A stretch of 64,000 nt of DNA. Origin: Chitinophaga pinensis. GTDB lineage: Bacteria > Bacteroidota > Bacteroidia > UBA7662 > JAIXUI01. The notes beneath the pieces are model-generated. The model made no database searches, had not been told where the DNA came from, and saw nothing but the letters and a program-made list of their open reading frames with translations. The stretch is taken from positions 20,260 through 84,259 of the forward strand of contig CALSBM010000002.1 of NCBI GenBank assembly GCA_943373175.1, given 5' to 3'. Shown here piece by piece: positions 22,116 through 55,597 of this stretch; the stretch's first letter is position 1; every line of letters starts with the position of its first letter. Both the position numbers and the translations under genes were made by a program.

Positions 22116-25070
22116 ATGCTATTCCCTTGTTTCTCATGGTTCAGCCTTAACTTTGGCACGCTCTCCGTAGAGCGCCTGCTCGAAGAGGCCTCCCGGCGCG
22201 GCTACCGAAGGCTGGCACTGGCAGACCTCAACAACACCTCGGGCATTCCCGACTTTTTACGGCTGGCGCCTAAGTACGGCATTCAACCTGCGGTTGGTGT
22301 AACCTTCGCTGAAGGCAGCCAACTGCGTTACGTGGCCTTAGCACAGGATGCCGAAGCTTATGCTGAAATCAACCGACATCTGTCGCAGCAACTCAAAACT
22401 GGCACTATGCCGCGACGGCGAGCCGAAGGCCTGCATCATGCTCGCGTTGTGTATCCCACAGGCAGCTACGGCGGCTGGCGGTTAAGGCCCAATGAGTTTG
22501 TGGGTGTTAACCTCGAAGAACTCCGCCACTGGCAAATCAGGCGTAAAGGCCTTCCCGAAGACAGTCTCGTGTTTGCTCACCCTGTTGTAGGCCTCGGCCC
22601 TTCTGATTACAACACTCATCGGCTTCTACGCGCTATCGATCAGAACATCCTCTTGAGTCGTCAGCAACCCGGCAGTCTCGCCCCTCGCTCCTGGCTTATG
22701 CCCGAACCGGAACAGCTTCGCGAAGCGGCAGCTAAAGCTCCGGAACTCTTCCGCCGAACCCGCTACCTATTCGATAGCTGCCAACTTAACCTCGGATTTG
22801 GTCAGCCAAAAAACCGCCATCACCTTGGTTCAGATGCCAATTATGACCGCGAACTACTCCGTAAGGAAGCAGAAGTCGGCGCATTTAGCCGCTATGGCCA
22901 TTGCTCCGGCGAAGTACAGCAACGCCTCAACCATGAACTTCAACTCATTGAATCGCTGGGCTTTACCTCCTACTTCCTTATCTGCTGGGATATGCTCTGC
23001 TTTGCACGCAGCAAAGGCTACTTCTACGTCGGGCGAGGGTCTGGAGCTAACAGCATCGTTGCCTATTGCTTGCTTATCACCAACGTGGATCCGCTAGAAC
23101 TCGACCTCTTCTTCGAGCGATTTATCAACCCCAACCGCAGCTCTCCCCCCGACTTCGACATCGACTTCTCCTGGAAAGACCGCGACGATATCCTGCGCTA
23201 CCTATTTGAACGGTATGGAGAGGAACACGTCAGGCTACTCGGAACCTATACCACCTACCAACAGCAGGGCGTTTTGCGTGAGCTGGGTAAAGTATTTGGC
23301 CTGCCACGACAAGAAATCGAAGAGTTGCCACGATGGTTGCATGAACCACCACCTGCCGACAGCACCCTCACCAAAACCCTGATACGCTATGCCAAACGCC
23401 TGCTCGATACTCCGGCACACCTATCTATTCATGCAGGTGGTGTGCTCATTTCTGAAAAACCAATGCATTATTACACCGGCACTTTCTGGCCCCCGAAGGG
23501 ATTCCCGGTGACCCAATTCTCTATGCTTGAGGCCGAAGACCTAGGATTGTACAAATTCGACATCCTCAGCCAACGGGGACTCGGACACATACGGGAAGCC
23601 GTGGACCTGATACGGGAAAACCGGAATGAAGAAGTAGATGTACACGACATCATCGGTTTCAAGCGAGACCCCGCCATTAAGGCCCTCATCCGGGAAGGAC
23701 ATACGCTTGGCTGCTTTTATGTAGAATCGCCGGCTATGCGCATGTTGCTACGAAAACTGCGGGCGGAAGAATATCCTGATTTGGTAGCCGCCAGCTCCAT
23801 CATCCGGCCAGGCGTGGCGCGCTCAGGCATGATGAAGGAGTACATCCTGCGCTTCCGGATGCCTGAACGGCGGCAACTGGCGCACCCCGCACTCATGAAA
23901 CTCCTGCCCGACACCTTCGGCATCATGGTGTATCAAGAAGATGTAATCCGGGTAGCCCATCAATTTGCTGGCATGAGCCTCGCCGATGCCGATGTGCTCC
24001 GTCGGGGTATGTCGGGTAAGTTCCGCTCCCGTGAAGAGTTTGCCAGGGTGCGAGAAATCTTCTTCGAAGGCTGTTGCCGGCAAGGCCATCCGGATGTGCT
24101 CAGTAAAGAAATCTGGTTTCAGATCGAAAGTTTTGCCAGCTATTCCTTCTCCAAAGGCCATTCAGCCTCCTTTGCAGTAGAAAGTTTTCAGAGTCTTTGG
24201 CTGAAAGCGCACTATCCTTTAGAATTCATGACCGCCGTCATCAACAATTTCGGAGGATTCTACCGTACCGAGTATTACGTTCATGAAGCGCGTCGTGCAG
24301 GTGCTCAGGTGGAAGCGCCGTGCGTGAACCATTCAGGATTGCTGTCGCGGCTTGAAGGGCAGATTTTATGGCTGGGGTTCACCCACTTGCAGGGATTCGA
24401 AAGTGCTTCAGTTGAAAAAATGATGGCAGCCAGAATGCGCCACGGCGACTTTCACTCACTAGAAGACTTTCTGGTACGCACCGGATTATCCACCGATCAA
24501 ACAAGGCTTTTAGTTCGAATTGGCGCCTTTCGCTTTACCGGACGGAGTCGCCAAAACCTGCACTGGGAGTTGTTTGGGCTGGCACGTCAGCAGCATTCAC
24601 AGCCAGCAGACATTCCTGTAGCCTTGTTCGAAACACCGGCTGAACAATTTGAACTTCCACCGCTTGACGACACCCCTACTGCACTTGCCTTTGATGAGCT
24701 TGAGCTATTCGGCTTCTCTCTCAGTAGTCCATTCCTTTTGATTCAGCCCGACGCTTTGCAGGACAACGGGATGCGAGCGAAGCAACTGCCGGCAAAAGCT
24801 GGGTTGGCAGTGACTGTTTTTGGCTATCTGGTGACGGTTAAAAGTACTCGAACCATCACGCGGGAAATCATGGGCTTCGGCACCTTCCTCGACATTGAAG
24901 GCGACTGGATTGATACTGTCCACTTTCCGGATACTTACCGCAAGCACCCTTTCCGAGGGAGTGGTTGTTACCGAATTTCAGGGAAAGTGACGGAAGAATT
25001 CGGGTTCTACAGCATTGAAGTGGACTCTATGGAAAAACTCCCTTTAAGAAATAGATGGGATTTGCCATAA
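22116..25070 (+). CDS. dnaE2: DNA polymerase III alpha subunit, DnaE2-type (error-prone)
   Basis: PHP-like N-terminus, VGRGSGANSIVAY, PDFDIDF, HLSIHAGG, KFDILSQRGL, YSFSKGHS and a C-terminal OB fold. At 984 aa it lacks the long C-terminal extension of replicative DnaE. Confidence 0.88.
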   Translation: MLFPCFSWFSLNFGTLSVERLLEEASRRGYRRLALADLNNTSGIPDFLRLAPKYGIQPAVGVTFAEGSQLRYVALAQDAEAYAEINRHLSQQLKTGTMPRRRAEGLHHARVVYPTGSYGGWRLRPNEFVGVNLEELRHWQIRRKGLPEDSLVFAHPVVGLGPSDYNTHRLLRAIDQNILLSRQQPGSLAPRSWLMPEPEQLREAAAKAPELFRRTRYLFDSCQLNLGFGQPKNRHHLGSDANYDRELLRKEAEVGAFSRYGHCSGEVQQRLNHELQLIESLGFTSYFLICWDMLCFARSKGYFYVGRGSGANSIVAYCLLITNVDPLELDLFFERFINPNRSSPPDFDIDFSWKDRDDILRYLFERYGEEHVRLLGTYTTYQQQGVLRELGKVFGLPRQEIEELPRWLHEPPPADSTLTKTLIRYAKRLLDTPAHLSIHAGGVLISEKPMHYYTGTFWPPKGFPVTQFSMLEAEDLGLYKFDILSQRGLGHIREAVDLIRENRNEEVDVHDIIGFKRDPAIKALIREGHTLGCFYVESPAMRMLLRKLRAEEYPDLVAASSIIRPGVARSGMMKEYILRFRMPERRQLAHPALMKLLPDTFGIMVYQEDVIRVAHQFAGMSLADADVLRRGMSGKFRSREEFARVREIFFEGCCRQGHPDVLSKEIWFQIESFASYSFSKGHSASFAVESFQSLWLKAHYPLEFMTAVINNFGGFYRTEYYVHEARRAGAQVEAPCVNHSGLLSRLEGQILWLGFTHLQGFESASVEKMMAARMRHGDFHSLEDFLVRTGLSTDQTRLLVRIGAFRFTGRSRQNLHWELFGLARQQHSQPADIPVALFETPAEQFELPPLDDTPTALAFDELELFGFSLSSPFLLIQPDALQDNGMRAKQLPAKAGLAVTVFGYLVTVKSTRTITREIMGFGTFLDIEGDWIDTVHFPDTYRKHPFRGSGCYRISGKVTEEFGFYSIEVDSMEKLPLRNRWDLP

Positions 25071-26343: not shown

Positions 26344-26922
26344 GTGGAAGCACTAACCAAAGCTATCAATGCGGGTCGAGATGATCTGGTAGATCAATTG
26401 CTGTTTCAGCACCCAGACTGGGTTCATGCCGAGGACTCATTAGGCACCAGCATGCTGATGCACGCACTGAACGAACGCCAGCCTTGGGTGGCAGGTGTAA
26501 TCATTCGCCACCGCCGCCATTTCAGCCCTTGGGAACTGGTAGCATGCGGTCTTGAAGGTGACTTGCGCCGCCAGCTTGATATAAATCCGGATTGGGTCAA
26601 CCTCTTCAGTCCAGATGGCTATCCGCTTATTGGGATAGCTGCTTGGTTTGGACAGGACGTTACCCTTCGTTTGCTTCTGGAAAGAGGCGCCAACCCCAAT
26701 GCTATCGCAGTAAATCCGGGTAGAATGTCTGCCTTGCATTGTGCAGCAAGTCAAAACCATCAGGAAGTTGCACGGCTGTTACTGTCTTACGGAACCTCGT
26801 TAAGCCACCTTGATCAAAATGGAAAAACTGCTTTTAAGCTGGCAAGTGACCTGGAGCACTATGAGTTTATGGAAGCGTTAAACAACCCTTCTTCGTCGCA
26901 AAATCCAGCCGTTCAGCGATAA
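26344..26922 (+). CDS. Ankyrin repeat protein
   Basis: GYPLIGIAAWFG...LLLERGANPN, SALHCAASQNH...LLLSYG, GKTAF. GTG start. Confidence 0.88.
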   Translation: MEALTKAINAGRDDLVDQLLFQHPDWVHAEDSLGTSMLMHALNERQPWVAGVIIRHRRHFSPWELVACGLEGDLRRQLDINPDWVNLFSPDGYPLIGIAAWFGQDVTLRLLLERGANPNAIAVNPGRMSALHCAASQNHQEVARLLLSYGTSLSHLDQNGKTAFKLASDLEHYEFMEALNNPSSSQNPAVQR

Positions 26923-29455: not shown

Positions 29456-29887
29456 TTGAGTAGCATTCAAAAAGTTAATTACAAGAGTCCGGATGAACTT
29501 TTAAATCATCTTCCCGAAGAACAGGTTCTTATGATGGAATGGCTCATGCAATACATTTCGGAGGTACTTCCTGAGTGTACGATAAAAATGAACTTCAACG
29601 CGCCGTTTTATCGTAGGAAGAAAAATCTTGTTTACCTCTGGCCTTCTGCTCTTCCATGGGGAGGAATCACTACTGGGGTTGCTGTTGGTTTTATTCACGG
29701 TCATTTACTCAGTAACGATCAGGGCTGGCTTTCAATGGGTAATCGTAAGCAGATTGGAATCCGGGTATTTAACAGTGTTCAGGAGTTACAACAACAAGCT
29801 GAAATGTTGAACATGTACTTACTTGAGTCGGCAATGATAGAAGATGAGCTATCAGCACGCACAAAAAAAGCCGGAAGAACACCATAG
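29456..29887 (+). CDS. DUF1801/YdhG-like protein
   Basis: Size and pattern (LPEC...FNAPFY...LVYLWPS...GFIHGHLL...R.FNS) resemble DUF1801. TTG start. Confidence 0.65.
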   Translation: MSSIQKVNYKSPDELLNHLPEEQVLMMEWLMQYISEVLPECTIKMNFNAPFYRRKKNLVYLWPSALPWGGITTGVAVGFIHGHLLSNDQGWLSMGNRKQIGIRVFNSVQELQQQAEMLNMYLLESAMIEDELSARTKKAGRTP

Positions 29888-29900
29888 GCTCTTCCGGCTT
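29863..29900 (-). terminator. Terminator for the minus-strand polysaccharide module, overlapping the 3' end of the DUF1801 gene
   Basis: AAGCCGGAAGA...TCTTCCGGCTT, with an A7 tract on the left that reads as a U tract on the minus strand. Confidence 0.75.
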
Positions 29901-29921: not shown

Positions 29922-32141
29922 TTAGCTCAGCGTATAACTTTTTTCATTGAAGCTAAGGGTCAAAATCTTCTTGATAATTCTCCTTAACCTGCTTCTCTTC
30001 TTAGGCACTTCACCGAATACCGATTCTAGCTTATAAGGCGCAACAACATTGAGGAACAAAGAAATGTTGTTGTTGGTTGCTTTGCGGAATAAGTTCAGGG
30101 AATGATTATCAGAATCTGTCCAAACCTTATTGGCCGCAGCAATTAATACAGAATGGGTTGCTTGGCGAACAATCTGTACAGGAATTGGGTTATCAATCAA
30201 AGCCGGAAGCTCTAAGATGATTAGTTTAGGATTAATTAATCCAGGGTGGTCATCTGGTAGGAAATCGCTTAAGGAGGCGTAATCAACAAAGTTGGTGTGA
30301 ATGACATAACTGATGTCGTTATTGGAAACACGCTCTATATCGCGGTAATTCTTGTAGTTATTGACAGTTATCGGGTGAATGAAATAAACTCCATCCATGA
30401 TATCGGAGAATTTGTTGAAGAGTTTACTTCCAACCCAAGTTTTACCTACTTCAGTCTTAGTAGAGAAAAGCAGCAAAAGATTGTAAGGCTGAGGATTATC
30501 AACTTTTCCAAATTCGATTTTTATACTAGAAAGCGAGTGCTCAATGAGTGCAGCCTCCAAGTAGTCTAAGTCAATTAACTTCTCTGAGGGATCTATCAAA
30601 GGCAAAGCGCCCAACATATTGAGGCCGGTAGCCTGCTCTGCACGAGTGATTGATTTGAGTGTATTGTCTAAGAACTCGACCGTTACAAAGAATCCAAGAG
30701 CCAATACAAATCCGCCTATAAACGATACAACAATCAAAAGCGGACGTTTAGAAGGCTCAGGTTTCTGTGGGAAGAATGGCGCATCCACCATTTTAAGATT
30801 CGAAGACAACTCGATGTTTTGTTGACGCAATTGCGCCATGTTTAATCCATGGAGCAACTGAAGGTATTCCTTCTCAATGATATCAACGTTTCTATTGAGG
30901 CGATTTAAGGTTGAACCAAGAGGAGCAAATTGGTTGTAAATGCCGTCAAACTCGATTTTCCTTTTCTCAATAACCCGCATTTTGGCTTTGCTTTCATCCA
31001 GATTGAGGATGTTGTCGAGCCATTGGTTGAGTAAGTTTTGACGTGGCACCGATTCAATGGTGTTGTTTAACCTAAAATACTCATCAACCAACCTTCTGAT
31101 TTCTTCTTTTAACTGCTCAGTTTTCGATACCAGTTTAGCAATTTCCTGAGGGTTTTCATTGGCAATACGCGCATTAGCAAGAAGAAAATTGGCACTCGAA
31201 AGCTCGGAGCGTTTTTCCATAAGCTTTTGTGTGTTCATGAGTACCATACTACGTGAGCCTATTTTTTCTTCGAGGCGTTTAAGGGCAGCCTCAGCAGACT
31301 CAATCTCCATTTTCTCACGGTAGATTTCCTTTTCAAGTTCTTCCTTTGCTTCGGCTATATACTTAGTTTGCTCGTCGTAGTTGATGATTTTATTTTTAAT
31401 TCCAAAATCCCTCAACTCATCCTCGGCACCTTTCAGTTTTCCGAATGTTTTGGAAGTCTGGTCTGCGAAATAACCTACAACACTTTCTGTTTCTGAGCCT
31501 TTATTCCTTTTATACCTGGACATAAAGACATTAGCCAGTGTTACCAACGTTTGCTGAGTTACACCGGGGTCATTTCCTTTGAAGCTTAAGTCCAACATAT
31601 CGGAGCTTTGCTTACGTGCAACAGTCATGTTTCTGGTAATAGATGCAATTCCGTACGTGGGGTTGTCGGAATTGAGGAGCGAAATGATTTCGTTCTTGTA
31701 ATGGGCATTTTTATACCTGACAATATTGCCAACGGTATTTTCGAGTGAGTATTTATCTACGAGTTTATCTCTTAAACGGGCAGGGATAATCTCTTGCAAC
31801 TCTCTGAAACCACCTGAAGAAAGTAATTCTGCTTTAGGTTGGTTCAGCATTAAATGTTGAGCTAACAACCTCAGTGCTACTTCTTCGATGGTTTCCCTTG
31901 CCTTAACGGTTGCAATCAAGTTATCGAAGGCGTTATTTACCGCAAAGTAGTCCACCCGGGTCTCTTCGGTACTCATAATTGAAACACCAGAAGCAAGTCC
32001 TGTGTACATCAGGCAGTTTGACACATATTCCTTTTTCTCATTACGAGTGAAAAAGAATACGACCAGAGCCAGCGTGAGTGGAAAGAGCACCAGCCATCTA
32101 AGGTTTTTGATGATAATCCGAATAAAATCGACCAAGCTCAT
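29922..32141 (-). CDS. GumC/Wzc-like polysaccharide co-polymerase with degenerate P-loop C-terminal domain
   Basis: N-terminal TM, long coiled-coil periplasmic region, second TM (PLLIVVSFIGGFVLALGFF), then STKTEVGKT Walker-A-like motif. Confidence 0.8.
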   Translation of the reverse strand: MSLVDFIRIIIKNLRWLVLFPLTLALVVFFFTRNEKKEYVSNCLMYTGLASGVSIMSTEETRVDYFAVNNAFDNLIATVKARETIEEVALRLLAQHLMLNQPKAELLSSGGFRELQEIIPARLRDKLVDKYSLENTVGNIVRYKNAHYKNEIISLLNSDNPTYGIASITRNMTVARKQSSDMLDLSFKGNDPGVTQQTLVTLANVFMSRYKRNKGSETESVVGYFADQTSKTFGKLKGAEDELRDFGIKNKIINYDEQTKYIAEAKEELEKEIYREKMEIESAEAALKRLEEKIGSRSMVLMNTQKLMEKRSELSSANFLLANARIANENPQEIAKLVSKTEQLKEEIRRLVDEYFRLNNTIESVPRQNLLNQWLDNILNLDESKAKMRVIEKRKIEFDGIYNQFAPLGSTLNRLNRNVDIIEKEYLQLLHGLNMAQLRQQNIELSSNLKMVDAPFFPQKPEPSKRPLLIVVSFIGGFVLALGFFVTVEFLDNTLKSITRAEQATGLNMLGALPLIDPSEKLIDLDYLEAALIEHSLSSIKIEFGKVDNPQPYNLLLLFSTKTEVGKTWVGSKLFNKFSDIMDGVYFIHPITVNNYKNYRDIERVSNNDISYVIHTNFVDYASLSDFLPDDHPGLINPKLIILELPALIDNPIPVQIVRQATHSVLIAAANKVWTDSDNHSLNLFRKATNNNISLFLNVVAPYKLESVFGEVPKKRSRLRRIIKKILTLSFNEKSYTLS

Positions 32142-32153
32142 GGTTACAAATGT

Positions 32154-32924
32154 TTATTTTCTAAGCTTTGAAATGGATACTCCAACAGTAGTTTCCAACT
32201 GATTGAAGGCAATAGTGAAGGAGCGTTTGGCCATTTCAAAGTTATTTTCATTGATGGTTACCGTTTGCATGATTTGAGTATAAGATGCCAAGTCTAAGAC
32301 TCCATCACGAAAAGATTTTTCAGCGAGCACCAAATTGATTTTAGAAGACTGAGTTGCATCGTTATGAATCCTCATCAACCGATAAAAGGCGAGTACATCG
32401 TTGTACTCCATAATTATCTGACGACGCAACACTAACTCTGCTTCTTCTTTCTTGTATTTGGAAGCCTTCAAATCCATTTTGGTAGCATTAACTTTTGCTT
32501 GACGGCCAAAGATTTCATACAAAGGTAATCTGAGGTTTAATCCAAATGCGACTCCATTACTTAAAGTCGACGACTGCGCCTGTCCAAGCCCTGAATTAGA
32601 CTGTAGTATCAAATCCTGATTACCTGCTGTCACATTCACAAACGGAATCATCCCATTCATCCATGAATAGCGATCAACATTAATCTGTTGTTCGGTTTTG
32701 GATATCACGGCATCGTTAAACTTCAAGGTAGGGCTATTCTTTAGCGCAATTTTTACGATGGAATCAAGAGGCAGTAATTGTTCTGAAAGATCCTGTTGTA
32801 TGTCACCAAAAAGGGCAAGCTCATTTTCTAATAGTAACGAATCTTTTACTTGCGCCTTTAACTGAGGAGATAAAGCCCAAAAAATCAGAATTAGGCAGCT
32901 ATAGTTAGGCCACTTCAGTTTCAT
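32154..32924 (-). CDS. TolC/outer-membrane efflux family protein with a single OEP repeat (256 aa)
   Basis: Signal peptide, LDSIVKIALKNSP, two beta-strands (FVNVTAG, GLNLRLPLY) and long amphipathic helices ending QLETTVG. Confidence 0.75.
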   Translation of the reverse strand: MKLKWPNYSCLILIFWALSPQLKAQVKDSLLLENELALFGDIQQDLSEQLLPLDSIVKIALKNSPTLKFNDAVISKTEQQINVDRYSWMNGMIPFVNVTAGNQDLILQSNSGLGQAQSSTLSNGVAFGLNLRLPLYEIFGRQAKVNATKMDLKASKYKKEEAELVLRRQIIMEYNDVLAFYRLMRIHNDATQSSKINLVLAEKSFRDGVLDLASYTQIMQTVTINENNFEMAKRSFTIAFNQLETTVGVSISKLRK

Positions 32925-32925
32925 A

Positions 32926-34119
32926 CTATACGTTCTCTTTTTGAAGAAGTGCTGGAATCGTTCTGAGAATCAGATTGATATCATGCCAAAAGCTGTAATT
33001 TTTTGCATAATCATTATCCAGACTCATGCGCTCCTCCTCTGACATTTCTCCTTTTCCTCTTTTCATAACCTGCCAAAGGCCAGTAATTCCAGCCGGAGCG
33101 AGAAACCTGAGCGAGAATTGGTCAGTTGTAATTTTTTCAGCTTCGTACAAGGGCAATGGGCGATTTCCTACTAATGACATATCGCCTTTCAATACATTGA
33201 AAAGTTGAGGAAGTTCATCAATACTGGTGTTCCGGATGAACTTCCCTACTTTAGTGATGCGTGGATCATCCTTGATTTTCACGAAAGCTGACCCTGCCTT
33301 AGCCTTTTTGATTCTAGCGTATTCTTCCTCCGTAACCATCTGACCATCCATATAGAGCAAGTCTGGATTGAGCAGATCTAATTCACCCGAAAGAGACATT
33401 GTTCCTTGGCTGGCAGACTCTGTTTCTGCAACCACATTGTTATACTGGTTTAAATGCGCAAGCTCTTTCAGTTTGGCATCAGCGCCAGTGAACATAGACC
33501 TAAACTTGTAGAATTTGAAAATCTGATACCCAGTACCTACTCTTAATGAATAGTAAAACACAGGCCCTTTCGATTCAAATCGTATGGCGATAGCAACAAT
33601 TAGAAATAAAGGAAGAAGAAAAACCAAAGCAACGCTGCAAACCAATACATCGAAAATGCGTTTGGATAGCGGCATTTTATACTTTAGTTGATCCGTGTGT
33701 TTAATATCAATATGGGCATTCAATGCCGGAGGGTTTTCTATCAAGTAATTAAACCTGAGTTTTAACCCATCTGTATCATGAAGGCTTTCATAAATATCAT
33801 TGAGTCCCTCTTTGAGTGCAATAGAGGCAACCCTTGGATTGACTTCATCTAATAACAATACAAAAGGCAGTTTCCAAAGATGTTCATTGCGCAAAGTTCT
33901 AAGCAAAGGCAATCCATTAACATCGTAAAGGTTGCATTTGGAAACAACCAAGTCTATGGATTGATCATGTTTGACAGCGTCAACAAAGTCGAAACCGCTT
34001 TTGAACGTAATAACATGGTAATCATTACCGAATTTATCGGTGAAATTGTGGTTGATTTCCGGATCCTGGCAAATAAGTCCTATGGTTTTCATGCTTTCAT
34101 CTGAGGTGTTGGAAGACAT
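32926..34119 (-). CDS. Sugar transferase (monotopic phosphoglycosyltransferase, WcaJ/PglC-like) with N-terminal receiver-like domain
   Basis: KRIFD...GPVFY...KFRSM...DDPRITKVGKFIRNTSIDELPQLFNVLKGDMSLVGNRP. The first ~130 aa follow a REC pattern. Confidence 0.9.
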   Translation of the reverse strand: MSSNTSDESMKTIGLICQDPEINHNFTDKFGNDYHVITFKSGFDFVDAVKHDQSIDLVVSKCNLYDVNGLPLLRTLRNEHLWKLPFVLLLDEVNPRVASIALKEGLNDIYESLHDTDGLKLRFNYLIENPPALNAHIDIKHTDQLKYKMPLSKRIFDVLVCSVALVFLLPLFLIVAIAIRFESKGPVFYYSLRVGTGYQIFKFYKFRSMFTGADAKLKELAHLNQYNNVVAETESASQGTMSLSGELDLLNPDLLYMDGQMVTEEEYARIKKAKAGSAFVKIKDDPRITKVGKFIRNTSIDELPQLFNVLKGDMSLVGNRPLPLYEAEKITTDQFSLRFLAPAGITGLWQVMKRGKGEMSEEERMSLDNDYAKNYSFWHDINLILRTIPALLQKENV

Positions 34120-34121
34120 GA

Positions 34122-34499
34122 TTAGAGCCTGAGGCGGCGGAAAATGTTATCAATTCTAGCATCTAACTCTTCCGGATTGAAGGGCTTGACCAAGTAGTCA
34201 TCGGCTCCTGCTCTCAAGCATTTAATTTTGTCGGCAGTAGAATCATTTCCTGATAAAGTAATCAAGGGCAATTCCTTAAAAAGACCACTGGTTCGAACAT
34301 GTCGGATAAACTCGATACCGTTGATTTCAGGCATATTAATATCTGCAACAATGATATCCGGGATGTTTCCAGCTTGCAACCAACCCAATGCTTCCTTTCC
34401 GTTAGCTTTAGATACTACTTGGTATCTGCTGCCAAAATAAAGTTCAAGTAATTTAAGAATGGTCTTTTCGTCATCAACCGCGAGAAGCACTTTTTTCAT
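34122..34499 (-). CDS. Single-domain response regulator (receiver only)
   Basis: VDDE, DIIVADINMPEING, LSG and GADDYLVKPF show intact canonical residues. Confidence 0.93.
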   Translation of the reverse strand: MKKVLLAVDDEKTILKLLELYFGSRYQVVSKANGKEALGWLQAGNIPDIIVADINMPEINGIEFIRHVRTSGLFKELPLITLSGNDSTADKIKCLRAGADDYLVKPFNPEELDARIDNIFRRLRL

Positions 34500-34540
34500 A
34501 GAACCAGATTAGGTGGGAGTGGGGAAAAAATTTAAAAACG

Positions 34541-43635: not shown

Positions 43636-44367
43636 GTGAGTCGAAATCTGGTGGTAATCCCCACCTACAATGAAAAGGGGAACATCGAAGCAATGCTCAG
43701 GAGGATTTTCGCTCTGGGCCACCACTTTCATATCCTGGTGGTGGATGACAATTCGCCGGATGGCACAGCCGACATTGTGAGAACCCTTCAGCAGGATTTC
43801 CATGGAAAGCTTTTTCTTGAAAGCAGAAGCGGCAAACAAGGCTTAGGGACTGCTTACATACACGGATTCAGGTGGGCACTTGCCCGTTCTTATCAACTTA
43901 TCTACGAAATCGACGCAGATTTCAGCCATAATCCGGACGATCTGCTTAAACTTGAACACACTTGCCTTCGGGAGGATGCAGATATAGCCATTGGTTCGAG
44001 GTATGTAACCGGCGTTAATGTGGTTAATTGGCCTATCTCAAGGGTACTACTCTCCTATTTTGCATCAGTTTATGTACGGTTTATCACCAGGATGCCCATT
44101 ATGGATGCTACTGCCGGTTTTATTTGCTATAAAAGACAGGTGTTAGAAAAAATCCGGTTTGATAAAATTCGGTTTGTAGGCTACGCCTTTCAGATAGAAA
44201 TGAAATACACTGCCTGGAAACATGGATTTGCGCTTAAAGAAGTACCGATAATTTTCACCGACCGTACTGTTGGGGAATCAAAAATGTCGAAAGGCATAGT
44301 AAAAGAAGCTGTTCTCGGAGTAATCTCCATGAGGCTACGCACTATCTTCCGTTCCTATAAAAATTAA
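43636..44367 (+). CDS. Polyprenol monophosphomannose synthase (GT2, Ppm1/Dpm1-like)
   Basis: VIPTYNE, VDDNSPDGT, GLGTAY, DADFSHNP, GSRY, DATAGF, GYAFQIEM. Confidence 0.9.
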   Translation: MSRNLVVIPTYNEKGNIEAMLRRIFALGHHFHILVVDDNSPDGTADIVRTLQQDFHGKLFLESRSGKQGLGTAYIHGFRWALARSYQLIYEIDADFSHNPDDLLKLEHTCLREDADIAIGSRYVTGVNVVNWPISRVLLSYFASVYVRFITRMPIMDATAGFICYKRQVLEKIRFDKIRFVGYAFQIEMKYTAWKHGFALKEVPIIFTDRTVGESKMSKGIVKEAVLGVISMRLRTIFRSYKN

Positions 44368-51772: not shown

Positions 51773-52411
51773 CTATACTAATTTTTGACGTATTGCTTTA
51801 GATACCGCTTCAGAGACTGAGTGAACATTGAGTTTTTCGTAAATTTTCTTGATATGGCTTCTAACAGTATCAATGCTGATGAGTAATTCGGCTGCAATCA
51901 TTTTATAGGAAAAGCCATCTACCAACAATTTTAGCAATTGCCTTTCTCTCGCAGTTAACCCGTATTGTGGCGTTGGCGACTGCTGTTCTGAAAAAAACTT
52001 AAGTACTTTCTGAGCTATTGCTGCACTCATCGGAACTTCGCCGTTTCTAATATCGACTATTGCCGATAAAAGCCTTGTCGGGGTTGTTTTCTTGAGCAGA
52101 TAACCATTAGCGCCGCGCTTCAATGCTTCAAAAAGATGGTCATTATCATCAAAAACGGTGTACATGATAACGGGAAGCTCAGGTTTGATGGATTTCACCT
52201 TAGTGAGCGTATCTAACCCATTAAGTACTGGCATGTCAATGTCCATGAGGATGACATCAGGAAACAGAGACCCTATAGCCTTTTCAACATGTTCACCATT
52301 TTCAAACATTCCTACGAGGTTAAAGTCTTCACTTAGAGAGAAGAGCTGACTAAGGCTCAAACGCAAGTCAGGATTATCCTCGTAAACTAATAGCCTGAGT
52401 GGTTGATCCAT
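51773..52411 (-). CDS. NarL/FixJ-family response regulator (REC + LuxR HTH)
   Basis: DVILMDIDMP, GANGYLLK, LTARERQLLKLLVDGFSYKMIA...TVRSHIKKIYEKL. Confidence 0.95.
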   Translation of the reverse strand: MDQPLRLLVYEDNPDLRLSLSQLFSLSEDFNLVGMFENGEHVEKAIGSLFPDVILMDIDMPVLNGLDTLTKVKSIKPELPVIMYTVFDDNDHLFEALKRGANGYLLKKTTPTRLLSAIVDIRNGEVPMSAAIAQKVLKFFSEQQSPTPQYGLTARERQLLKLLVDGFSYKMIAAELLISIDTVRSHIKKIYEKLNVHSVSEAVSKAIRQKLV

Positions 52412-52446
52412 TATTCAAATGACCGCCAATTTTTTTCAGGATACAA

Positions 52447-52462
52447 TCACATTTTTATGTGA
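52447..52462. promoter_or_regulatory. Palindrome TCACAT-N4-ATGTGA between the kinase and regulator genes
   Basis: Exact 6-bp inverted repeat 35 bp upstream of the regulator start. Confidence 0.5.
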
Positions 52463-52471
52463 ATATCCCCA

Positions 52472-55462
52472 TCAACTTGGCAGTTTAAATCTTAATTTCC
52501 AATGAGTTCCCAATCCGGGTTTAGAATGAAGTTCACATTCTGCTTGAATTTGTGCAGCACGTTGATGAATGTTGCTCACACCGTTTCCTCCTTTTCTTAC
52601 TTTTTGCAAATCGAATCCGCAGCCATTGTCTGATAAGTCAATCGCAATAGATTTCGAATCTACCCTGAGGGCGATACTCATTTCAGTGGCAGCAGAATGT
52701 TTAGCAGCATTGTTTACAATTTCCTTAAAGAGGAGGTATAAATGCTGACGAGTATCCATGGGTATCGCAGCTTGTTGTAGGTCGCCGGTAACCTTAAAAG
52801 TGAGTTCAATGCCCATAGCTTCCAACGTCTGAGCTGCAAATTCCCTCATTCTTGCCACAAGTTCCGGGAGTGCATCGTTTGTGGGCTTAATGGACCAGAC
52901 GATGTCAGAAACCCGTTCCATCATTTCTTGGGTGCTGTTTCCGATTCTATTTAGCAACTCTGAGGCATTTTCCGGCTTTCTTTTCGCCAGTTCTGTTAGA
53001 ATATTCACACTCGATAACGTTGCTCCAAGGTCATCGTGCAAATCAGAGGCTATCCGCTGGCGGACTTTTTCCAGCTCCTTTTTTCTCTTCATCTTGATTC
53101 TCCAGTAAGAATAAACTATGCTTCCAAGAAACAACGTTGATCCTAACAGGAACCACCAGGTAGTATAGAAAGGTGCTTTAACTTCAATCGTAATGAAACT
53201 TGATTTTCCCTTTGGCTCACTTTCGTATTGACCTGCAAACTCTAACTGATACTTGCCTGGAGGCAAGTATGATAACGTGATGGTTCGGCCTTCCGTGATG
53301 CTTTGCCACTCGTTGCTCTTGTTAACAAAGCGATAGGAATACCTGATTTTAGTAGCATCAATTAAAACTCCGGAAGTAAGATCTAGTTCTAAAGTATTCG
53401 CGCTAGTCTGAAGTGTATAATTAGCATCAATTGGAGCATTTATTTCTTTACCATTCATTCTAATTGCAGCAATAGAGGCAACAGGTGCTGATTTCTTTTT
53501 AAAGAATTCTGGAATTGAAAGAGTGTAAATAAATTTAGGGTCAATAAAAACTAATTCATTTTTATCGATAATGGCATTCGACGTATTTTCTTCGTCTTCA
53601 ATGCCATCGAATACGTTTAATTGTTTTAAAGCATCCAGCTTCTGTTTGAGGTACACGAGAAACCCGGTGTTGGTTTGGATCCAAACATTGAGAAAAGAAT
53701 CAGGGAAAATATTAATAACACGATTGTGGGGAACTTCCTGGTTATTAACAAGATGTATCCACTTTTTAGAATGGCCATCAAGAAACCACACGCCCGATTC
53801 TTCCGTACCAACCCATAAATTACCATTTGGCATTTCCCGAACTGCCGATAACGTTGGCATGTCATAAGAAGATCGGTTGTAATCTCCCGGAAAACGAATT
53901 GACTTCCACGAAAGCGTATTCGTATCGAGTTGACCCAATCCGTTATGATGTATATTGAACCAAATGGCCCTCGTTCCAACTCCTCCTCCAGAAAAATTTA
54001 TTGATGGAAGGTTCAACTCTTTGGCGGTGCGAAATACTAGACTATCTTTTCCCCAATGATAATACATCACTTGGTGTCCTACAGTGCCTAAAACGTAGCG
54101 CATAGAATCAAGTTGAAGAACTTGAAAAGATTTTAATTGCGGATAGCGGCATTCAGGTTCATGAAATACGACCGTATCTGCATTCGAGTACTTGACTTTT
54201 AACTTAGCAATACCCATATATCCCGTAAGCAGTACCTCATTTTCTTTTATTCTAAAGCAGTTAAACACCGCTCCATCTGTTATGCGATAATGGTTGTTAA
54301 GAAGCCAACATTTCCCATTATTACGGGAGATGGCATAAACACCGCTATAACCATTTCCAAGTAACCAATCCGAGTTCAGCACCATCATCTGATAATAGTC
54401 CGGTATTTCTGGGAATTTAGAGATATAATGAATTGGAATTCGTTTAAGAAAATGCCGTTTAGTGGAAATCACGGATAATCCTTTGTCTGTAGATACCCAA
54501 AGAAGTCCTTGATTATCCACCAATAACCCATAATTCTCTATAAAAAATGGAATGCGGTATTTAGGATCAGCCGATTTAAGTATTGTAGCCGTCCAATCTT
54601 CAGGATTAACAATCAAAACGCCATTTCCAAAAGAAGTAATGGCAATTCTACCATCGGTTAATGCGGCAAATTGAAAGGAAACAAATTTTTCGTTCAAACT
54701 TCCATTCAAACACTTCAATTTAATTTTTTCAATTTGCTTAGTAAATGGATTCCACACAATTAATCCATTAGCCCAACCACCGGAAAGTATTCGTCCATCC
54801 TTTAATTGTGCGATAGGTCCTTGAACTGGTTCAACTGGGTTAAGATATATTTTATCGACTTTTAATGTTAATTTATTTAACTGATAAAGACCATAAAAAG
54901 CGCTGAAATAATGGTAATCGCCTGAATTGGTAATCAGGAATCGATTAGCAATAACATCCGATATTAATTTTACAACTTTTGGCTTTCGGGAATCATATAA
55001 ATAAACCCCCATACCACCGCTAATAAATACTCGGAATTTATCAAGCGGCTTCACTGAAAAAACTCTTTTTATGTTTTCACTATTAAGCGGCTTAGGTAGC
55101 AGTATATGCCGCCATTTTAAGGTGTAAACATTTACCATCGAAAGCCCTCCTCTATGGCCCACGAGCATGATGGAATCTCCCCAAGGACTCAGTGCTTCAA
55201 TATGATTATTCCAAACAGGGCCTTCCGGTTGAAGATTTCGGAATACTCTAAATCGATACCCGTCGTAACAGTTTAAACCACTTTTGGTTCCTGCCCAAAT
55301 TATTCCTCTTTGATCCTGAGCTATACAAAATACTGCGTTATGGGAAAGCCCGTCTAACTTGGTAAAGTGTCTGATGCGTTGGAGGTTGTCCTCCAGAACA
55401 CCAGCACAGACAAGAGGGGGCAAGGCCATGCACAGCAACAGGAAGCACCAATGTCCTCTCAT
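52472..55462 (-). CDS. Sensor histidine kinase: beta-propeller (Reg_prop) + Y_Y_Y + TM + HisKA_3 + HATPase
   Basis: DGLSHNAVFCIAQDQRGIIWAGT, LPPGKYQL, PFYTTWWF, RIASDLHDDLG, DNGCGF, GNGVSNI, GLGT. Confidence 0.93.
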   Translation of the reverse strand: MRGHWCFLLLCMALPPLVCAGVLEDNLQRIRHFTKLDGLSHNAVFCIAQDQRGIIWAGTKSGLNCYDGYRFRVFRNLQPEGPVWNNHIEALSPWGDSIMLVGHRGGLSMVNVYTLKWRHILLPKPLNSENIKRVFSVKPLDKFRVFISGGMGVYLYDSRKPKVVKLISDVIANRFLITNSGDYHYFSAFYGLYQLNKLTLKVDKIYLNPVEPVQGPIAQLKDGRILSGGWANGLIVWNPFTKQIEKIKLKCLNGSLNEKFVSFQFAALTDGRIAITSFGNGVLIVNPEDWTATILKSADPKYRIPFFIENYGLLVDNQGLLWVSTDKGLSVISTKRHFLKRIPIHYISKFPEIPDYYQMMVLNSDWLLGNGYSGVYAISRNNGKCWLLNNHYRITDGAVFNCFRIKENEVLLTGYMGIAKLKVKYSNADTVVFHEPECRYPQLKSFQVLQLDSMRYVLGTVGHQVMYYHWGKDSLVFRTAKELNLPSINFSGGGVGTRAIWFNIHHNGLGQLDTNTLSWKSIRFPGDYNRSSYDMPTLSAVREMPNGNLWVGTEESGVWFLDGHSKKWIHLVNNQEVPHNRVINIFPDSFLNVWIQTNTGFLVYLKQKLDALKQLNVFDGIEDEENTSNAIIDKNELVFIDPKFIYTLSIPEFFKKKSAPVASIAAIRMNGKEINAPIDANYTLQTSANTLELDLTSGVLIDATKIRYSYRFVNKSNEWQSITEGRTITLSYLPPGKYQLEFAGQYESEPKGKSSFITIEVKAPFYTTWWFLLGSTLFLGSIVYSYWRIKMKRKKELEKVRQRIASDLHDDLGATLSSVNILTELAKRKPENASELLNRIGNSTQEMMERVSDIVWSIKPTNDALPELVARMREFAAQTLEAMGIELTFKVTGDLQQAAIPMDTRQHLYLLFKEIVNNAAKHSAATEMSIALRVDSKSIAIDLSDNGCGFDLQKVRKGGNGVSNIHQRAAQIQAECELHSKPGLGTHWKLRFKLPS

Positions 55463-55597
55463 TGTGGACAATTTAATTGACAATTTTTAAAGCAACATCA
55501 GACTTCTTACAGAACTTTTGATTTACAGTTTTTTGACATCTTTAAACACTGATAAACAAGTACATACATCACAATAACTTCGACAAAAATTAAAACT

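Follow-up and report, generated by a model that had tools for sequence, protein, structure and literature searches.

How does a polysaccharide cross the outer membrane when the genes around its co-polymerase encode no dedicated export channel? To our knowledge, every described Gram-negative route for capsule or exopolysaccharide (EPS), whether dependent on Wzx/Wzy or on an ABC (ATP-binding cassette) transporter, uses a Poly_export protein (outer-membrane polysaccharide export, OPX), alone or with a beta-barrel porin. The question is raised by four genes in a 64,000-nucleotide stretch of contig CALSBM010000002.1 (assembly GCA_943373175.1, Chitinophaga pinensis; hereafter the window). They encode a single-domain receiver (REC), a phosphoglycosyl transferase (PGT) with a receiver-like N-terminus, a half-size member of the TolC family of outer membrane factors (half-OMF), and a Wzc/PslE-like polysaccharide co-polymerase (PCP). 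We read the four genes as the conserved core, covering regulation, priming, and export, of a Wzx/Wzy-type EPS pathway of Bacteroidota; for this reading, proposed mechanism included, we estimate a probability of about 0.6. We found no description of half-size OMFs, or of OMF–PCP pairing, in the published literature.

The argument begins with the pairing of the third and fourth genes. The sequence-only reading, an earlier account of this DNA made without database searches, called for a survey of gene neighborhoods across Bacteroidota and named, as the outcome that would speak against it, a TolC-like gene not conserved beside the co-polymerase. The survey finds the reverse. In 17 of 17 independent loci (Bacteroidia metagenome-assembled genomes, Flavobacteriales, Luteibaculum, Crocinitomicaceae, Algoriphagus, Roseivirga, and others; the related-locus search with a narrow half-OMF alignment returned 13 loci), the half-OMF gene directly precedes the PCP homologue. 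At one extreme the two genes overlap by 4 bp, a frequent case; at the other they stand 27 bp apart.

Downstream of the pair, relatives carry Wzy_C (7 of the 9 loci scanned), glycosyltransferases (GTs) of the GT2 and GT4 families, Wzx, and methyltransferases. Poly_export is found in no cluster, either in the precomputed Pfam annotation or in Pfam scans of 84+10 neighbors. As phmmer probes, whose sensitivity is limited, Escherichia coli Wza and Wzb match nothing in any locus; Wzc gives one weak match only. The order REC, pseudo-receiver PGT, half-OMF, and PCP recurs at loci L007, L008, and L011, and in the latter two a hybrid histidine kinase (PAS-HisKA-HATPase-REC, with or without Hpt) sits directly upstream of REC. 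Algoriphagus and Roseivirga share another order: REC, a DUF4114/DUF4842 protein, a short PGT, Acyl_transf_3, half-OMF, and PCP. Judged by gene content, the predicted half-OMF/PCP system is widespread in Bacteroidota, and in relatives the pair stands at the head of full Wzx/Wzy/GT clusters.

What, then, is the half-OMF? Where two tandem OEP repeats make up a typical OMF protomer of ~430–500 amino acids (aa), this protein of 256 aa has one. Pfam OEP matches a single time, over model positions 1–187 of 187 (68.4 bits against a cutoff of 22; 9.6e-19), and the full-length models stay far below their cutoffs (TIGR01845, 32 bits against 210; TIGR01844, 31 bits against 225). The AlphaFold2 (AF2) model, with a predicted local distance difference test score (pLDDT) of 85.8, consists of a helix (residues 65–91), a beta-hairpin of two 13-residue strands (95–107 and 118–130), a helix of 66 residues (141–206), and a helix of 36 residues (212–247). 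In a Foldseek search of the Protein Data Bank (PDB), the top 39 matches are all OMFs, with about half of each target aligned and target-normalized TM-scores (TMt) of 0.30–0.37. As modeled, the protein is exactly one TolC/OMF structural repeat. Its N-terminus holds a signal-peptide-like segment, and the Gln after the predicted cleavage site is nearly invariant. So is Gly208, at the periplasmic helical turn, which aligns with the tip glycine of the TolC ‘VGT’ motif; it is at this tip that adaptors dock on TolC. Sequence and model together identify gene 3 as a predicted secreted single-repeat TolC-family protein.

The half-size form is a family of its own. A HMMER search over 1.84 billion representatives (E<1e-10) collects 497 clusters, and the best 150 are almost all single-repeat proteins of 230–290 aa. 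Half-size and full-size OMFs fall into separate score classes, at least 117 versus at most 83 bits. In databases the half-OMF genes are labeled ‘TolC family protein’ and the PCP genes ‘GumC family protein / ExoP’.

The fourth gene product belongs with the Wzc-type co-polymerases in its overall build. Its AF2 model (pLDDT 83) runs from a first transmembrane (TM) helix through an alpha/beta base, long periplasmic helices of 58–77 residues, and a second TM helix to a cytoplasmic alpha/beta domain, and it matches full-length Wzc by Foldseek (8e-19). Alignment by hhalign to E. coli Wzc reaches 97.4% over residues 127–594. A profile search of the PDB returns PslE (1.3e-9) and Wzc (9e-9), whose entries contain 8 chains each (octameric rings); a single-sequence phmmer search of the PDB gave nothing useful. 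Family models score below their cutoffs (GNVR, 24.4 bits against 27.7; the chain-length determinant model TIGR03007, 86.5 bits against 278.9, 1.1e-24), and some homologues have precomputed PF13807 or PF02706 matches.

The cytoplasmic domain resembles the kinase domains of Wzc, Etk, and CapAB (Foldseek E~1e-5, TMt 0.55–0.62) and partly retains Walker A, as STKTEVGKT (S-x4-GKT). The DxD of Walker A' is lost (VYFIHPITVN against VLLIDCDMRK), the DTPP of Walker B is replaced by ‘LELP’ (‘ELP’), and the C-terminus lacks a Tyr cluster, with 2 Tyr in its last 44 residues and a basic tail, GEVPKKRSRLRR. These changes mark it as probably a pseudokinase, and sequence and model place gene 4 as a predicted Wzc/PslE-like co-polymerase with a degenerate kinase domain. 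Pseudokinases of the bacterial tyrosine kinase (BY) type scaffold PCP-2 proteins (PMC12004946); the protein fits this concept of a BY pseudokinase and phosphorylation-independent PCP-2.

The first two genes appear to supply control and priming. REC (Pfam Response_reg, 93.6 bits, 1.1e-26) has the canonical pocket: the acidic pair D9/D10, the acceptor D53, S83, and K104, conserved in the clade alignment. By these residues, gene 1 is predicted to be a phosphorylatable single-domain receiver. The catalytic part of the PGT matches Bac_transf at residues 153–392, over model positions 1–178 of 179 (199.8 bits against a cutoff of 27; 3.5e-59), and TIGR03025 at 8.9e-72. Its translation contains a hydrophobic helix of the re-entrant type, KFRSM, DDPRIT, and SIDELPQL, which includes IDELPQ with the Asp-Glu dyad intact. 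The 4-TM bundle and DUF that form the N-terminus of large monotopic PGTs (monoPGTs) are replaced by a soluble REC-like domain, and the WbaP, WcaJ, and EpsZ models match the C-terminal catalytic part only, below their cutoffs. Gene 2 is, on this domain evidence, a predicted small monotopic PGT with a fused pseudo-receiver. Between KFRSM and DDPRIT lies an insertion of ~55 aa (residues ~212–275); the Algoriphagus and Roseivirga PGTs (253–261 aa) are long enough to accommodate it too.

The fused domain scores 27 bits with Response_reg, under the 30.2 cutoff, and aligns with the neighboring REC by BLASTP (5e-08), where ‘DIIVADINMP’ in REC stands opposite ‘DLVVSKCNLY’ in the PGT. A Lys thus occupies the position of the phospho-acceptor Asp. 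Across the five fusion-bearing lineages that position is K/N/E/N/S, and neither the acidic pair nor the conserved Lys is present, a pattern that identifies the predicted domain as a true pseudo-receiver. Every REC-fused PGT has an adjacent canonical REC (the window, L007, L008, L011, and L022), spaced 2–14 bp from it or overlapping it in 5 of 5 lineages. Profile, alignment, AF2, and Foldseek results therefore agree with all four domain assignments of the sequence-only reading.

Two observations concern the neighborhood of these regulators. A DUF4842 protein of ~670–740 aa recurs next to REC or PGT (L001:5836-7857, L011:2589-4814, L022:1880-3889, and L016:4418-6469), and a DUF4114 domain is additionally detected in those of L001 and L022. 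In the Crocinitomicaceae locus L020, a stand-alone Hpt and a receiver flank the cluster (L020:19053-19391 and L020:1307-1690), which suggests that phosphorelay components can be split over separate genes.

How might the parts work together? In the mechanism we propose, a hybrid histidine kinase, encoded beside the module in relatives and elsewhere in the genome of the window, would phosphorylate REC. REC~P would dock on the PGT pseudo-receiver as a REC–REC heterodimer and so switch on the transfer of sugar-1-phosphate to undecaprenyl phosphate. Elsewhere in the genome, GT, Wzx, and Wzy genes would supply the enzymes that complete, flip, and polymerize the repeat units. The co-polymerase ring, its kinase-like domain acting as a phosphorylation-independent scaffold, would then hand the chain to a duct of several half-OMF protomers that replaces the Wza-type OPX channel. 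Six copies would give the 12-strand barrel of TolC; eight would match an octameric PCP and form a wider pore.

The regulatory step has a precedent in Myxococcus xanthus, where EpsW~P activates the initiating PGT EpsZ post-translationally (PMC12802240, published 2025). Because REC adjoins the REC-fused PGT in five lineages and because this precedent exists, REC~P probably activates priming through the PGT pseudo-receiver. Both systems encode a stand-alone CheY-like receiver with a PGT of the Wzx/Wzy pathway, and the relatives of the window also have a dedicated sensory kinase. The differences are that EpsZ belongs to the large monoPGTs, with a 4-TM bundle and DUF, and is proposed to be dimerized by EpsW, whereas here a small PGT carries a pseudo-receiver, and that the REC of the window is not an EpsW equivalog (69.3 bits with NF041866, cutoff 200). 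By this analogy, the receiver/pseudo-receiver-PGT pair suggests an extension of the EpsW–EpsZ principle to small monoPGTs, together with a mode of docking.

Several findings pull against our reading, and those on the regulatory side come first. The target of EpsW is a large monoPGT without a REC domain, so the docking mode is extrapolated. Neither REC nor PGT is present at several loci. The stand-alone RECs of Algoriphagus (L001:5442-5831) and Roseivirga (L016:4012-4407) lack the N-terminal acidic pair, and in Algoriphagus a Gly also replaces the acceptor Asp, with KPFNP kept; this ‘signal’ protein may itself be a pseudo-receiver. Given the loci without REC and PGT and the missing acceptor in Algoriphagus, receiver gating is not universal. 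Algoriphagus and Roseivirga, moreover, keep a stand-alone REC although their PGT has no REC-like domain, and the DUF4842 gene lies between the two. These two lineages, including the degenerate Algoriphagus REC, are the ground for another account, in which REC acts on the co-polymerase pseudokinase, as a phosphate sink, or on some other partner, and the PGT pseudo-receiver is a domain for dimerization or stability. We consider it unlikely, if the best sustained of the alternatives: the close association of REC with the fused PGT in all five fusion lineages argues for the PGT as its target, and EpsW–EpsZ shows that a single-domain response regulator can activate a PGT directly.

For the export step, our reading is that the half-OMF oligomerizes into a TolC-like duct that would take the polymer from the co-polymerase ring in place of Wza. 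We favor this duct to a fair degree, because the half-OMF/PCP pairing is strict and often translationally coupled, because the clusters lack OPX, because membrane-length beta-strands and a ~100-Å helix are retained, and because Gly208 is near-invariant at the periplasmic turn. The wider proposal is an OPX-free class of translocon: a hexameric or octameric single-repeat duct on a Wzc-like ring, representing a pre-duplication form of TolC, with priming under receiver/pseudo-receiver control. On that proposal we judge the odds to be even.

Here, too, there are points on the other side. The search for OPX covered about 10 kb around each locus, and OPX proteins of classes 1–3 are common in Bacteroidetes genomes. 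Furthermore, the Algoriphagus locus abuts a second region of sugar-nucleotide/CpsB type, and Class-3 OPX systems spread their export parts over several proteins. The polymer could accordingly leave through a conventional, shared OPX encoded elsewhere, with or without a beta-barrel porin, and the half-OMF could be an accessory that serves as a gate or as a scaffold in the periplasm or outer membrane. This is improbable in our judgment, given that the two genes remain adjacent across several families with no OPX in the cluster and that the half-OMF keeps the full OMF repeat with its membrane-length strands and its 66-residue helix.

Fusion proteins complicate the duct further. In ~12% of the best half-OMF family representatives, an inner-membrane Acyl_transf_3 domain is fused N-terminal to the OEP repeat in proteins of 610–665 aa. 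Such a fusion would anchor the repeat at the inner membrane if no cut were made at an internal signal peptide. A signal-peptide-like segment with an Ala-x-Ala / Gln site is indeed preserved inside the fusions, for example KRFSGKIAVILLMISISVTVASA followed directly by QD, and their genes lie in the same type of cluster, directly before the PCP gene; cleavage and release of the repeat are therefore plausible, and the fusion is possibly cut by signal peptidase. Algoriphagus and Roseivirga have Acyl_transf_3 and half-OMF as separate adjacent genes. The association suggests, at the level of gene arrangement, that O-acylation is coupled to export.

Could the pair instead export something other than polysaccharide? 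OMFs normally partner periplasmic adaptors. The PCP has weak coiled-coil similarity to HlyD (TIGR01843, E 0.0048), and HlyD-like and TolC-like proteins act together in cyanobacteria, so the pair might be an efflux or type-I-like exporter of a lipid, glycolipid, small molecule, or protein, with the PCP-like protein as its adaptor. We regard this as very improbable: the partner is Wzc/PslE-like over its full length and not a membrane fusion protein (MFP), no ABC, RND (resistance-nodulation-division), MFS (major facilitator superfamily), or MFP gene is conserved beside the pair, and the invariant neighbors are Wzy, Wzx, GTs, and PGT.

The remaining question is whether the four genes of the window are a working module. 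Domain scans bear out the statement of the sequence-only reading that the unit itself has no Wza/OPX, Wzx, Wzy, Wzb, cluster-type GT, or cognate kinase. The whole 64-kb window, moreover, holds no homologue of the Wzy, Wzx, GT, DUF4842, or hybrid-kinase genes of the relatives, so the lineage of the window keeps only the core at this locus; its close relatives likewise have no Wzy, Wzx, GT, or kinase genes there. Two candidates for missing parts were rejected. A lone GT2 (43636-44367) shows no homology to the GTs in the clusters of relatives, and a sensor kinase of 1003 aa (Reg_prop/Y_Y_Y/HisKA_3), paired on the minus strand with its own DNA-binding LuxR-type response regulator (51773-55483), is not homologous to their hybrid kinases. 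The sequence-only reading had described the unit as holding only the control points of a pathway. That description stands for the lineage of the window and fails for relatives, in which the core lies inside complete Wzx/Wzy/GT clusters with a hybrid kinase; the window is on this account a split fragment and not an autonomous system. Two points here add to those against our reading: with Wzx, Wzy, GT, and kinase missing from the window, completeness of the pathway in this organism is not demonstrable, and the locus was found in no RNA-seq run. The DNA runs that contain it are lake and freshwater metagenomes.

Conservation nonetheless speaks for function. We compared the window with relative L002, which has ~80% nucleotide identity and ~50% identity at third positions, so that synonymous change is saturated. 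Amino-acid identity is 100% for REC, 95% for PCP, 88% for PGT, and 87.5% for half-OMF, with 95% for the neighboring pdhB. The REC gene (L002:8423-8800 in the relative) has 81.5% nucleotide and 51% third-position identity; its complete protein identity, a constraint above that on pdhB, implies many interaction surfaces. High amino-acid identity at ~50% third-position identity means that the core is not decaying and is under strong purifying selection, and by this comparison the module is evidently functional. That the genes are a non-functional remnant after loss of a Wzy/GT part is therefore the least credible account of all, even though Wzy, Wzx, GT, and kinase genes are missing from the locus in the window and in its close relatives, unlike in all more distant relatives, and housekeeping genes flank the module: all four reading frames are intact, and their arrangement is stable in at least 3 independent assemblies.

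The predicted system combines features of several known ones. Like E. coli Wza–Wzc, it has a PCP in which two TM helices flank a long helical periplasmic domain and a P-loop domain forms the C-terminus, and in relatives a cluster of PGT, Wzx, Wzy, and GTs; the concept of an envelope-spanning conduit is shared as well (PMC12881504). It differs in its single-repeat TolC-family partner and the absence of a Poly_export/OPX gene from the clusters, in a kinase domain without Walker A' and Tyr cluster, and in having no Wzb phosphatase. PslE, the best sequence match among solved structures, also has a degenerate C-terminal P-loop domain, aligned through Walker A. The partners of PslE and of M. xanthus EpsV/EcpK are OPX proteins (PslD, and the Class-3 OPX WzaX with a beta-barrel porin), whereas here the partner is the half-OMF; EcpK, in addition, is a separate pseudokinase protein, and here the pseudokinase is fused to the co-polymerase. 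Class-3 OPX translocons (WzaB–WzpB–WzcB; PMC9603273, PMC12819527) resemble the system in that the part spanning the outer membrane is a separate, paired protein of a different fold, but they combine a Poly_export OPX with an 18-stranded monomeric barrel in place of a candidate oligomeric OMF-type duct.

With TolC, OprM, and CusC (TC 1.B.17), the half-OMF has in common the Pfam OEP domain, the tip glycine, and a repeat made of a short helix, a beta-hairpin, a ~66-residue helix, and a half-length helix. Those proteins have two repeats in ~430–490 aa and serve an MFP with an RND, ABC, or MFS pump; the half-OMF has one repeat in its 256 aa and a PCP as its conserved neighbor. In cyanobacterial cellulose secretion there is already a case of a polysaccharide that exits through a TolC-type duct instead of a dedicated porin: according to Maeda 2018, as summarized in the review PMC8892547, a synthase acts with HlyD-like and TolC-like secretion proteins. 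That route, as summarized there, is synthase-dependent and employs a full-size TolC and an MFP adaptor.

The coordinates of the module are collected below. The sequence-only reading had described tightly packed genes closed by a terminator. Measured again on the minus strand, the genes are separated by 2, 1, and 12 bp, and a hairpin with a T-run follows the last of them, starting 22 nt past the co-polymerase stop codon and running into the 3' end of the DUF1801 gene, which is convergent. The transcription unit thus has a clear 3' end, but since pdhB ends 41 bp upstream of REC with no intervening terminator, the 5' boundary is not fixed. The pdhB–REC spacer of relative L002 is 35 bp, and only a CCCCACT motif is common to both spacers. 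Bacteroidota promoters differ from the sigma-70 type; a sigma-70 scan, whose model is not that of Bacteroidota, gave an uninformative 21 sites against 16.9 expected. A scan of the window with Rfam matched no family.

Table 1. Features of the four-gene module and related fusion proteins. Positions are those of the window unless a locus is named.
Feature	Position	Strand	Basis
REC gene, single-domain response regulator, 125 aa	34122..34499	-	Open reading frame (ORF) and Pfam Response_reg
PGT gene, 397 aa	32926..34119	-	ORF and Pfam Bac_transf
PGT N-terminal pseudo-receiver, about residues 1–140 (predicted)	33700..34119	-	Response_reg below threshold and BLASTP
PGT catalytic domain (Bac_transf), monotopic	32926..33699	-	Pfam Bac_transf, TIGR03025, motifs
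Half-OMF gene (TolC-family), 256 aa, signal peptide and one OEP repeat (predicted)	32154..32924	-	Pfam OEP, AF2, Foldseek
Co-polymerase gene (Wzc/PslE-like), 739 aa	29922..32141	-	ORF and TIGR03007, Foldseek, hhalign
Co-polymerase membrane/periplasmic part, PCP-2-like, about residues 1–515	30597..32141	-	AF2, Foldseek, profiles
Co-polymerase cytoplasmic BY-kinase-like domain, about residues 516–739	29922..30596	-	Foldseek, motif comparison
Intrinsic-terminator-like hairpin	29868..29900	-	13-bp stem, 7 G-C pairs, 7-nt loop, TTTTTGTG tail
Spacer from pdhB stop to REC start, 41 bp	34500..34540	-	Terminator scan: none present
Acyl_transf_3::OEP fusions	L022:4064-5941; proteins P0019, P0023, P0042, P0059, P0104, P0146		

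The housekeeping genes that flank the module are pdhB, a short-chain dehydrogenase/reductase (SDR) gene, thrS-infC, a DEAD-box helicase gene, and ribosomal protein genes. Other features of the window stand apart from it. Three consecutive giant genes on the plus strand (222-21803) encode type IX secretion cargo of 1518, 2309, and 3331 aa with Lamin-tail (LTD), GEVED, and fn3/GH85_C-like domains and with Por_Secre_tail or CHU_C sorting domains; these proteins are probably surface adhesins. A gene for a 984-aa protein of DNA polymerase III alpha type (22116-25070, plus strand) has a G+C content of 0.51–0.57, versus ~0.43 around it, and occupies the same place in relatives (982 aa); this G+C island may reflect biased usage or an old acquisition. 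An ankyrin-repeat protein of 192 aa (26344-26922, plus strand; 206 aa in relatives), unusual in a free-living bacterium, is encoded between the ribosomal protein genes and the DEAD-box helicase gene.

If the reading of the four genes as an export core is true, the pairing of a PCP with a TolC fold, without OPX, would be a further architecture for the outer-membrane exit of polysaccharides and would tie their export mechanistically to tripartite efflux machines. The two repeats of TolC are thought to stem from a duplication, which gives a half-size OMF an evolutionary interest of its own. In freshwater and marine Bacteroidota, genes labeled ‘TolC family’ and ‘GumC family’ would be open to re-annotation by the hundreds. 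Roseivirga and Algoriphagus are culturable carriers of the pair, which makes the idea directly testable. The EPS of freshwater and marine Bacteroidota is relevant to aggregates and to carbon flux.

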